A stretch of DNA of 32,000 nucleotides, taken from Candidatus Harpocratesius repetitus. GTDB lineage: Archaea > Asgardarchaeota > Lokiarchaeia > Sigyniarchaeales > Promethearchaeaceae. Below the pieces are notes generated by a model, which saw nothing but the letters and a program-made list of their open reading frames with translations, made no database searches and was not told the origin of the DNA. Numbering within the stretch: position 1 is the stretch's first letter; every line of letters begins with the position of its first letter. The position numbers were made by a program, and so were the translations under genes. Shown piece by piece: positions 14,867-26,889 of this stretch. The DNA lies in the NCBI GenBank assembly GCA_021498095.1, contig JAIZWK010000001.1:810001-842000 (forward strand). Direction: 5' to 3'.

Positions 14867-16108
14867 ATGGTACAACCTTTAAAACTAGATAAATCGAATG
14901 CACTCTATAAGGAAGCTCTTGGATTAATTCCTGGTGCGATATTAGGAATTAGAAGACCATATAATTTTGTTGAAGGAGAATATCCAATATTTTTTGAACG
15001 TGCTAAAGGCGTAAAAGTCTATGACGTTGATGGAAATGAATATATTGATTATCTATGTGCCTATGGACCTATAATAATTGGACATAGGGAAAATGAAATT
15101 GATGAAGCAGTTATCACTCAAATTCAAGAAAATGGATTTTGTATGTCTTTGACTCAACCCGTTCAAAATAAACTAGCAAAGAAATTACAAACGCTAATTC
15201 CCTCTTGTGAAAAATGCGTTTTTGTTAAAACAGGTTCTGATGCTACAACTACTGCTATTCGTATTGCTCGTGGATATACAAACCGAACTAAAATTCTACG
15301 ATGTGGCTATCATGGATGGCATGATTGGTGTGTTGAAGTTAAAGGTGGAATTCCGGAGAAATTATATGAAGATGTTTTTGAATTTGAATATAATAATTTA
15401 GAACAGTTAGAAAACTTAATGAAAATTCATGGATCGGAAGTAGCCGCTATAATAATTACTCCTGTGGGTCATCCTTTAGGACATAAAGTCCAAATGCCAC
15501 AATCTGGATATTTAGAAGCGGTGAAGAAATTAGCCCATGAATATGGTGCAGTTTTGGTATTTGATGAAATTCGCAGTGGATTTCGGGTAAATCTAGGAGG
15601 TGCGCAGAAAGAATTTGGAGTGACTCCCGATTTAGCAGTCTTTGGAAAAGCTATTGCAAACGGTTATGCGATTTCTGTGGTTGTAGGAAAAGCAGAAATT
15701 ATGGATGTGTTAGAACACGACGTCTTTTTAAGTTCAACATTCTTTCCAAATAGTCTCGCTCAAGTAGCTGCCCTAAAAACTATTGAAATAATGGAGAGAG
15801 ATGATGTTTTGGGCGTGATCCGGCGCAAAGGGACTGATTTTGGAAAAGGTATACAGGATATTATTGAAGATGTTGGTGTTCCATGTGAATTTTCAGGTGG
15901 TCCATGGATGCCTTTTATTACATTTAAACATGACCCCGAGAAAAAATATAAAACGCTACGTCCTGCCTTCTATACGAGTTTGATTCGCAGGAAAGTATTC
16001 TTGCAGCCGTATCACCATGGATATATTGCTTTCCGCCATTCTGAAGAAGATCTCGCCTATACTCTGGAAGCAATTAGAGAAAGTTTGAAAGAAATAAAGA
16101 ATCTCTAA
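14867..16108 (+). CDS. kat: Class-III PLP aminotransferase (GSA-aminomutase-like); probable 3-aminobutyryl-CoA aminotransferase
   Basis: DVDGNEYIDY, GYHGWHDW, FDEIRSG and FGKAIANG motifs; GGAGAG RBS. The Kat assignment rests on adjacency to kce and absence of kal (inference). Confidence 0.7.
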   Translation: MVQPLKLDKSNALYKEALGLIPGAILGIRRPYNFVEGEYPIFFERAKGVKVYDVDGNEYIDYLCAYGPIIIGHRENEIDEAVITQIQENGFCMSLTQPVQNKLAKKLQTLIPSCEKCVFVKTGSDATTTAIRIARGYTNRTKILRCGYHGWHDWCVEVKGGIPEKLYEDVFEFEYNNLEQLENLMKIHGSEVAAIIITPVGHPLGHKVQMPQSGYLEAVKKLAHEYGAVLVFDEIRSGFRVNLGGAQKEFGVTPDLAVFGKAIANGYAISVVVGKAEIMDVLEHDVFLSSTFFPNSLAQVAALKTIEIMERDDVLGVIRRKGTDFGKGIQDIIEDVGVPCEFSGGPWMPFITFKHDPEKKYKTLRPAFYTSLIRRKVFLQPYHHGYIAFRHSEEDLAYTLEAIRESLKEIKNL

Positions 16109-16165
16109 TAATTAATGCAATTGGGTAAAAATACAACTTGATAAAAATACAATAGTGAGAAAAAA

Positions 16166-16990
16166 ATGATGGAAAAAGTAATAATAACTGCTGCAATATG
16201 TGGGGCTGAAGTGTCTAAAGAGCATAACCCTGCAGTTCCTTATACTATTGAAGAAATTGGAAGAGAAGCGGAAAGTGCATATAAAGCAGGGGCCAGTATT
16301 ATTCATTTACATGTTCGAAATGATGATGGCACACCGACACAAGATAAGGATCGGTTTGCAGCTGCCATCGCTGAGATAAAAAAGCGCTGTCCGGATGTAA
16401 TTATTCAACCTTCGACTGGAGGTGCAGTAGGAATGACTGATTCCGAACGATTGCAACCCACAGAATTAAATCCTGAAATGGCAACTTTAGATTGCGGAAC
16501 TTGCAATTTCGGAGGCGATGATATTTTTGTTAATACTGAAAACATGATTAAGAATTTTGCAACCAGAATGAAAGAGCGCGGTATTAAACCTGAGTGCGAA
16601 GTGTTTGATAAAGGAATGATCGACATGGCACTTAGATTACATCGAAAGGGCTTTATTCCTGGACCATTACATTTCAATATGGTAATGGGTGTTAATGGGG
16701 GAATTAGTGGAACACCTAGAGATCTGTTGTTTATGGTGGAAAGTATTCCATCTGATGCAACTTTTACTGTGTGTGGCATTGGTAGGGCGGAATTTCCTAT
16801 GATAACTATGTCTCTATTGTTAGGGGGTCATGTAAGAGTTGGATTTGAAGATAATATTTATCTTGCAAAAGGAGTACTAGCAAAATCAAACGGCGAATTA
16901 GTGGCAAAAGCTGTGAGAATTGCGCGAGAATTAGGTCGAGAGATTGCTACACCTGATGAAGCACGAAATATTCTGGGATTGAAACGATAG
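16166..16990 (+). CDS. kce: 3-keto-5-aminohexanoate cleavage enzyme (BKACE family)
   Basis: IITAAICGAE, HLHVR Zn ligands, STGGA and GGHVRVGFEDN motifs; lies within the lysine cluster. Confidence 0.92.
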   Translation: MMEKVIITAAICGAEVSKEHNPAVPYTIEEIGREAESAYKAGASIIHLHVRNDDGTPTQDKDRFAAAIAEIKKRCPDVIIQPSTGGAVGMTDSERLQPTELNPEMATLDCGTCNFGGDDIFVNTENMIKNFATRMKERGIKPECEVFDKGMIDMALRLHRKGFIPGPLHFNMVMGVNGGISGTPRDLLFMVESIPSDATFTVCGIGRAEFPMITMSLLLGGHVRVGFEDNIYLAKGVLAKSNGELVAKAVRIARELGREIATPDEARNILGLKR

Positions 16991-26099: not shown

Positions 26100-26100
26100 A

Positions 26101-26889
26101 ATGGGCGGCGGACTTTATTCTTCTCATAAGAAAAATTTTGATACAACGCGTGATGAAACGAAAATTAAACCTTACGGAGATACCATGAATGATGGTAAAA
26201 TTCAACTAAGTTTTACATTACCCATTAAAGATGGAGATCGCGCTGTGGAAACTGCTCGTCAGTACGTTGAAAAATTGAATATGCGGGATATTCAAGTTGT
26301 TCACCATGAGGCTCTAGATAAAGAGTTTACTTTCTTCGTTGTCTATGCCACTGCAACTCCGACTATAGATTATACGGCAATTCAAGTGGAAGAATTAGAA
26401 ATTGAAACCTTATCAATGGAAGAAACAGATGCATTTATACAAAACAATATAGGTAGAAAAATTATCGTTGTTGGAGCCACTACAGGAACTGATGCACATA
26501 CCGTCGGAATCGATGCAATTATGAATATGAAAGGATATATGGGTCACTACGGATTGGAGCGTTATAAAATGATAGAAGCCTATAATTTAGGTTCTCAAGT
26601 CTCCAATGAGAAATTTGTAAAAACTGCTATTGAATTACATGCTGATGTAATGTTAGTTTCTCAGACTGTGACTCAAAAAAATGTTCACATCAAAAATTTA
26701 ACCGAGTTAGTTGAATTGGTTGAAGCTGAAGGACTTCGTAAGAAAGTTGTGCTGATTGTGGGCGGCCCCCGTATTACAAATGATTTAGCAAAAGAATTAG
26801 GATTTGACGCTGGATTTGGACCCGGAAAATATGCAGACGATGTCGCAACATTTTTTGCGAAAGAAATTGCAAGACGTTTAGGAAAATAG
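26101..26889 (+). CDS. kamE: Lysine 5,6-aminomutase beta subunit (B12-binding)
   Basis: KPYGDTMNDG, DAHTVGIDAIMNMKG (DxHxxG plus PLP lysine), VSQTVTQ and GFDAGFG motifs; GGAGG RBS upstream. Confidence 0.96.
   Translation: MGGGLYSSHKKNFDTTRDETKIKPYGDTMNDGKIQLSFTLPIKDGDRAVETARQYVEKLNMRDIQVVHHEALDKEFTFFVVYATATPTIDYTAIQVEELEIETLSMEETDAFIQNNIGRKIIVVGATTGTDAHTVGIDAIMNMKGYMGHYGLERYKMIEAYNLGSQVSNEKFVKTAIELHADVMLVSQTVTQKNVHIKNLTELVELVEAEGLRKKVVLIVGGPRITNDLAKELGFDAGFGPGKYADDVATFFAKEIARRLGK

Follow-up and report, generated by a model that had tools for sequence, protein, structure and literature searches.

A probable Kat-type lysine fermentation cluster of bacterial origin in the chromosome of the lokiarchaeon Candidatus Harpocratesius repetitus

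How might an archaeon that carries the upper genes of a lysine fermentation pathway, and no kal, process 3-aminobutyryl-CoA, and where would the electrons released on the way go? The question is raised by a gene cluster of Candidatus Harpocratesius repetitus (contig JAIZWK010000001.1), found at nt 14,867–26,889 of the window, by which is meant the whole 32,000 nt stretch analysed here (positions 810,001–842,000 of a genome assembled as one contig of 4,361,485 bp, with a completeness estimate of 93.6%). Gene calls were based on an open reading frame (ORF) listing and on Pfam and NCBIfam family scans of the window, the latter read against the NCBIfam equivalog cut-offs. An original prediction, made from the letters of the sequence, had proposed a lysine pathway in which an aminotransferase stands in for Kal. 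We find that the cluster is very probably a functional one of this Kat variant, bacterial in origin and resident in a Lokiarchaeales chromosome, a reading that rests on sequence comparison.

The product of the first gene of the cluster is, judged by its homologues, an orthologue of 3-aminobutyryl-CoA aminotransferase (Kat) and distinct from HemL. Its best Swiss-Prot match is B0VH76, the characterised Kat of Cloacimonas acidaminovorans (EC 2.6.1.111; PMC3149608), with 65% identity over 412 residues and a template modelling (TM) score of 0.96, the structural match having used a model folded from 25 homologues (predicted local distance difference test, pLDDT, 84). The corresponding values for HemLs are 26–34% identity and TM scores of 0.86–0.90. 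Bacterial proteins of about 70% identity include one from Cloacimonadota and one named 3-aminobutanoyl-CoA transaminase by JGI. In a quick LG+G4 tree, with four HemLs scoring above the TIGR00713 cut-off as the root, the window protein lies inside the Kat clade (SH-aLRT 98, stem 100) and apart from the HemLs, so that the phylogeny called for earlier, Kat against HemL, groups it with Kat at an SH-aLRT of at least 98. The claim that the glutamate-1-semialdehyde-like aminotransferase is Kat therefore stands as regards orthology and clade. D233 and K261 are invariant across the 25 homologues and, following the general class III pattern, are probably the aspartate that binds pyridoxal phosphate (PLP) and the Schiff-base lysine, respectively. 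The start of kat was placed at the ATG at nt 14867, and a longer TTG frame from nt 14813 was discounted, because homologues measure 413–414 aa. Kats of this kind are often labelled glutamate-1-semialdehyde aminomutase or aspartate aminotransferase family in databases, names that can now be corrected. One Ozemobacter genome provides an internal control that separates the two families: it encodes a true HemL (601 bits) together with a Kat scoring 270 bits on the same HemL model, close to the 275.5 bits of the window protein, the gene for this Kat sitting in a kat-kce-atoD-atoA-kdd-kamA cluster.

The remaining pathway genes were identified with little ambiguity, as Kce, Kdd, KamA, KamB, KamC, KamD and KamE all (7/7) score above their NCBIfam equivalog cut-offs (Table 1). 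This bears out, together with the ORF coordinates, the earlier placement of kce, kdd and kamA–kamE at nt 14867–26889. Characteristic motifs are intact in KamA (CSMYCRHC, of the form CxxxCxxC, residue 129), KamE (DAHTVG, of the form DxHxxG, residue 137) and KamC (Walker A, GANMGGKT). The kat gene lies upstream of kce with a spacing of 57 bp, and the plus-strand run from kce to kdd is broken at nt 17071–19057 by a minus-strand pair, an Lrp-family gene and a PepD-like gene. The order kce-kdd-kamA-kamB-kamC-kamD-kamE matches that of many Clostridium loci, as had been claimed, and family scans agree with the earlier observation that the window is without kal, CoA-transferase, bcd or etf. The Rfam scan of the window returned only a tRNA-Ser, and no riboswitch was found.

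Table 1. Positions in the window of the lysine fermentation genes and adjoining features, with the family matches on which the gene calls are based
Feature	Position (nt)	Strand	Evidence
tRNA-Ser	14455-14537		ARAGORN, Rfam
kat, 3-aminobutyryl-CoA aminotransferase orthologue, class III PLP enzyme, 413 aa	14867-16108	+	PF00202, 181 bits
kce	16166-16990	+	NF052387, 455 bits (cut-off 382); PF05853 BKACE, 382 bits
Lrp/AsnC-family candidate regulator	17071-17541	-	HTH_24, HTH_AsnC, AsnC_trans_reg domains
PepD-like gene (beta-Ala-His dipeptidase family)	17549-19057	-	TIGR01893, 237 bits, under 344 cut-off
kdd, L-erythro-3,5-diaminohexanoate dehydrogenase	19250-20326	+	NF052381, 269 bits (cut-off 200)
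kamA, lysine 2,3-aminomutase, radical SAM	20429-21718	+	TIGR03820, 618 bits (cut-off 525); LAM_C, Radical_SAM domains
kamB, lysine 5,6-aminomutase reactivase subunit	21752-22795	+	NF052386, 352 bits (cut-off 210)
kamC, reactivase ATPase, MutS domain V type	22814-24412	+	NF052383, 484 bits (cut-off 300); MutS_V domain
kamD	24513-26099	+	NF052384, 934 bits (cut-off 600); PF09043, 902 bits
kamE	26083-26889	+	NF052385, 392 bits (cut-off 280); OAM_dimer, B12-binding domains

On the proposed route, KamA would convert lysine to beta-lysine, and the B12-dependent KamDE, maintained by the KamBC reactivase, would turn this into 3,5-diaminohexanoate. Oxidative deamination by Kdd would give 3-keto-5-aminohexanoate, NAD(P)H and NH3, after which Kce would react the keto acid with acetyl-CoA to yield acetoacetate and 3-aminobutyryl-CoA. 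Kat is then predicted to transfer the amino group of the latter to 2-oxoglutarate, forming acetoacetyl-CoA and glutamate, and glutamate dehydrogenase (Gdh) would restore 2-oxoglutarate, forming another NAD(P)H. How Kat and the variant pathway work was established by Perret et al. (2011, PMC3149608), in whose enzyme tests 3-aminobutyryl-CoA was transaminated with 2-oxoglutarate and Kat was inactive on those free beta-amino acids that were tested. Outside the cluster, an unlinked thiolase and an ADP-forming acetyl-CoA synthetase (ACD) would take acetoacetyl-CoA to acetate and ATP, acetoacetate would presumably be activated by one among several unlinked CoA-transferases, B12 would be imported, and electrons would reach a partner in the form of H2 or formate. 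By our own bookkeeping, the net conversion would be one of lysine to 3 acetate, 2 NH3 and 2 NAD(P)H and would leave two net acetyl-CoA for about 2 ATP; by comparison, the Kal route would give butyrate and acetate with one acetyl-CoA and would be redox balanced.

Much of what this route calls for was found elsewhere in the genome. The search proposed earlier for thiolase, Gdh and hydrogenase returned all three: a thiolase of the bacterial acetoacetyl-CoA type (TIGR01930, 510 bits, cut-off 241), three to four copies of Gdh and one NiFe hydrogenase. There are also two copies of ACD. The predicted need for B12 is supported by the absence of hemB and by the presence of a CobA-type corrinoid adenosyltransferase. 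Both electron transfer flavoprotein (ETF) families searched, ETF alpha and the ETF domain, are missing from 3/3 genomes of the genus (one of them closed), which removes the known sink through Bcd/EtfAB. The simplest electron outlet would then be H2 or formate passed on to a partner, as in the physiology of Promethearchaeum syntrophicum MK-D1. A second gene of the KamA radical SAM family is present at genome positions 2384100–2385038 (minus strand), its product being 39% identical to the KamA of the cluster.

The host of the cluster is archaeal as far as these analyses show, in keeping with the probable Asgard assignment of the original prediction. The genome belongs to the same family as Candidatus Lokiarchaeum ossiferum, the aminotransferase has its nearest named homologues in Promethearchaeota metagenome-assembled genomes (MAGs), and the window encodes a Ras-family GTPase (nt 2021–3838, 183 bits) with a long tail that ends in a zinc ribbon. 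GC content is uniform across the window (0.29–0.35). HflX and tRNA-Ser genes flank the cluster on one side and a P-type ATPase gene on the other, an arrangement matching that of the MK-D1 locus (Imachi et al. 2020, supplement), and the same cluster in the same setting is shared by two further species of the genus and by a related archaeal contig (L002), at 53–93% identity.

The main alternatives differ in which part of this reading they dispute. It could be argued that the aminotransferase is HemL, or an unrelated class III enzyme that merely adjoins kce, and that 3-aminobutyryl-CoA is handled in some other way. The best-scoring NCBIfam models are indeed those for GntE and HemL (about 280 bits), and all PDB sequence matches are HemLs, but these scores lie far under the curated cut-offs: 275.5 bits on TIGR00713 (cut-off 527.3), 283 bits on NF000818 (cut-off 398) and, for HemL-type models overall, about 275–283 bits against cut-offs of 398–706. 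Identity to the characterised Kat is 65%, against at most 34% to HemLs, and the tree sets the Kat clade apart. Searches of the closed genome found no hemB (ALAD), which leaves a HemL without a tetrapyrrole pathway to serve (an argument that Perret et al. applied to Cloacimonas, PMC3149608), and no kal, with no match to the Kal model or to the Kal portion of the bifunctional model; the latter result answers the genome search for kal proposed earlier. Among 400 Asgard genomes sampled, 154 of which belong to the order of the window, Kat matches are bimodal (at least 62% identity or at most 40%), kat is linked to kce in 56/56 genomes, and kal is nearly excluded where kat is present. An assignment to HemL or to an unrelated enzyme is thus highly improbable. 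Even less credible, to the point of being negligible, is a misassembly or misbinning of bacterial DNA into an archaeal genome. A clostridial gene order and proteins that share 60–80% identity with clostridial ones would be expected of such an artefact; against it stand the single 4.36 Mb contig, the flanking HflX, tRNA-Ser, Ras-family GTPase and P-type ATPase genes ordered as in MK-D1, the even GC content, the recurrence of the cluster in its setting in two congeneric species and L002, and the occurrence of kat or kal across about 90 genomes belonging to the order.

A more serious alternative accepts the Kat route and disputes its consequence, proposing that redox is balanced within the cell by reduction of one acetoacetyl-CoA, by way of Hbd, crotonase and an acyl-CoA dehydrogenase, to butyryl-CoA and on to butyrate, without obligate export of H2 or formate. 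This is the scheme that Perret et al. proposed for Cloacimonas (PMC3149608), and it can draw on several findings that weigh against a partner-dependent Kat pathway. The genome encodes an Hbd homologue (PF02737, 210 bits), three crotonases, six acyl-CoA dehydrogenase homologues and three Cat1-type CoA-transferases, and because of the first three a butyrate branch using another electron carrier is conceivable and may operate. Etf alpha is encoded in 134 of the 154 genomes of the order, including most of the Kat type, and since most Kat-type relatives have Etf, the Kat route does not generally imply loss of the butyrate sink. Other adverse points concern the supply of cofactors and the fate of acetoacetate. 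Neither a BtuF-type binding protein nor a PduO-type adenosyltransferase was found (the two families searched), from which absence of uptake does not follow. An AtoDA orthologue was not found in the genome (best match 23.5% identical), and its only family I CoA-transferase pair is divergent and matches no NCBIfam model. The other candidates are one of family III (1,177,505–1,178,683) and the three of Cat1 type. None of the candidates, which lie at 2.600, 1.178, 1.370, 1.015 and 2.638 Mb of the genome, is linked to the cluster, and a search for acetoacetyl-CoA synthetase returned only sub-threshold relatives among acyl-CoA synthetases. Set against the butyrate scheme are the absence of ETF alpha and the ETF domain from all three genomes of the genus, which leaves the known NADH-dependent reduction of crotonyl-CoA by Bcd/EtfAB without its partner, and the scatter of the hbd, crt and acd genes, which are dispersed and unlinked to the lysine genes. 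We consider in-cell balancing by butyrate unlikely. The earlier claim that there is no butyrate sink is upheld in part: Etf is absent and a sink is likely to be lacking in this genome, whereas the Hbd homologue, crotonases and acyl-CoA dehydrogenases speak for the other side. The six acyl-CoA dehydrogenase homologues are present despite the lack of ETF alpha and the ETF domain across the three genomes of the genus.

The Kat-type cluster also appears to have entered this archaeal order from bacteria. Kce, Kdd, KamA, KamD and KamE are 60–80% identical to proteins of Clostridia (Kce alone, 74–80%), while for KamB and KamC the values are 27–44%. Kat sequences of Asgard archaea fall into a single group of weak support (80%) that nests among the Kats of Riflebacteria, Bacteroidetes, Elusimicrobia and Cloacimonadota. 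The high identity, the shared gene order, the nested position of Kat and the confinement of kat and kal to one order support transfer from bacteria, and the horizontal acquisition proposed in the original prediction gains from the same bacterial identity, Kat nesting and one-order confinement among the 400 genomes. In a Kce tree, sequences of family f1 interleave with bacterial ones, the latter being the 80 closest in sequence to the query and hence a biased sample. Several independent transfers from bacteria into Asgard archaea were considered and are not established, as an approximately unbiased (AU) test does not reject monophyly of the Asgard Kce (p = 0.34).

Orthologues of Kat (at least 62% identity; next class III matches at most 40%) were detected in 63/400 Asgard genomes and Kal in 27/400, and all carriers fall within two families of the order of the window. 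True Kce is encoded in 82 of the 154 genomes of the order, 55 of which have Kat only, 23 Kal only, one both (L. ossiferum) and three, all incomplete MAGs, neither. The Kat variant is therefore commoner than Kal in this order, accounting for about two-thirds of sampled genomes that encode Kce. Wherever both kat and kce could be located (56 genomes), the two genes share a strand and kat is the upstream one; kat and kal fill this upstream slot as alternatives. Because the two types co-occur within single genera (g9, g19 and g20) and do not separate from each other in the Kce tree, the slot has changed occupant several times. An order-wide link between Kat and loss of Etf was also considered and is rejected, as Etf alpha is missing in just 7/63 Kat-type and 4/27 Kal-type genomes.

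It is possible, if rather doubtful, that kal and kat are interchangeable cassettes, repeatedly swapped in Lokiarchaeales even inside genera (with the cultured species L. ossiferum retaining both), that toggle the mode of lysine fermentation, and that loss of Etf fixed the partner-dependent mode in the genus of the window. If true, the kal mode would be redox balanced, with butyrate as a product and about 1 ATP, and the kat mode would give acetate only, about 2 ATP and two pairs of reducing equivalents for export to a partner; the locus would then serve as a genetic marker of the dependence of an Asgard lineage on syntrophy.

Variations on the locus were seen among relatives. In at least seven Kat-type Lokiarchaeales genomes of family f3, a family III CoA-transferase gene (PF02515, 471 bits) lies between kat and kce (loci L121, nt 2721–3938, L123, L124, L125, L128, L129 and L131). 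Its product is, from its family and position, a candidate for a non-AtoAD enzyme of acetoacetate activation; the family III CoA-transferase of the window's own genome is 32% identical to it. In L. ossiferum (locus L148, genome positions 3068000–3087999), kal (nt 6977–7414) and kat-kce (nt 11576–13762) are found within 7 kb, and near kat-kce are atoA/atoD (nt 15564–16903) and a thiolase with an OB-fold partner (nt 17150–18874); kdd and the kam genes are not in this stretch.

The minus-strand pair that interrupts the cluster is itself conserved. The Lrp and PepD-like genes occupy the same position in L002 (nt 10864–12847), with 72% and 70% identity, and L. ossiferum has a counterpart pair (L148, nt 1–1869; 54% and 51% identity) about 5 kb upstream of kal. 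This conserved company with the lysine genes suggests that the pair has a pathway-linked role in regulation or sensing. Between the L. ossiferum pair and kal lies a minus-strand gene (L148, nt 4299–5954) with shoulder and repeat domains of the major vault protein (PF11978, 92 bits; PF01505; PF17795).

Asgard metabolism bears on syntrophy-based models of the origin of eukaryotes, and it is in this setting that the choice between Kat and Kal matters. The Kat route would provide more acetyl-CoA than the Kal route, and hence more ATP, but twice the reducing equivalents, and a genome without Etf offers no evident internal sink for these electrons. The prediction that a partner consuming H2 or formate is needed is thereby sharpened, and lysine becomes a specific, testable substrate with which to probe partner dependence in such Asgard lineages. 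Lysine degradation of the Kal type, which butyrate formation can balance in redox terms, is already known from Asgard archaea (MK-D1, the first isolate), as are Kat enzymes and the pathway variant from bacteria. The literature searched, which did not cover subscription journals, held no description of Kat in Asgard archaea, where lysine fermentation is described only in its Kal form, nor was the distribution of Kat and Kal across the order found described. The sole archaeal mention found is of a putative Kat/Kal in Thaumarchaeota without the rest of the pathway.

Compared with known systems, the aminotransferase shares its fold and PLP chemistry with HemL and differs in its low identity, its sub-threshold scores, its separate clade and the lack of hemB in the genome. 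The cluster as a whole resembles the clostridial and fusobacterial arrangement, kal-kce-(atoDA)-kdd-kamA-kamB-kamC-kamD-kamE, with which the order from kce to kamE is identical, except that Kat replaces Kal and no atoDA is present, so that acetate would be expected in place of butyrate plus acetate. In C. acidaminovorans, as in a Bacteroidetes contig from a digester (Perret et al. 2011, PMC3149608), kal is likewise replaced by a class III aminotransferase resembling HemL beside kam, kdd and kce, and Cloacimonas is similarly without a tetrapyrrole pathway, a predicted syntroph, and provided with Gdh for the recycling of 2-oxoglutarate. Unlike Cloacimonas, which has AtoAD and Bcd/Etf candidates, the present host is an archaeon with neither an AtoAD orthologue nor Etf; its cluster contains the Lrp/PepD-like insertion, and its kat lies directly upstream of kce, whereas that of Cloacimonas adjoins a thiolase gene. 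The closest parallel within the Archaea is MK-D1, a member of the same family, for which Imachi et al. (2020, PMC7015854, supplement) record kamA, kamD, kamE, kdd, kce and kal (DSAG12_00552–00569). Both share the upper pathway and a neighbourhood running from the P-type ATPase through kamE, kamD, the mutS-like kamC, kamB, kamA and kdd to kce, tRNA-Ser and HflX. In MK-D1, however, about ten other genes separate kdd and kce, the genus has Etf where that of the window has none, and kal (DSAG12_00569) lies beside kce in the place that kat occupies here.

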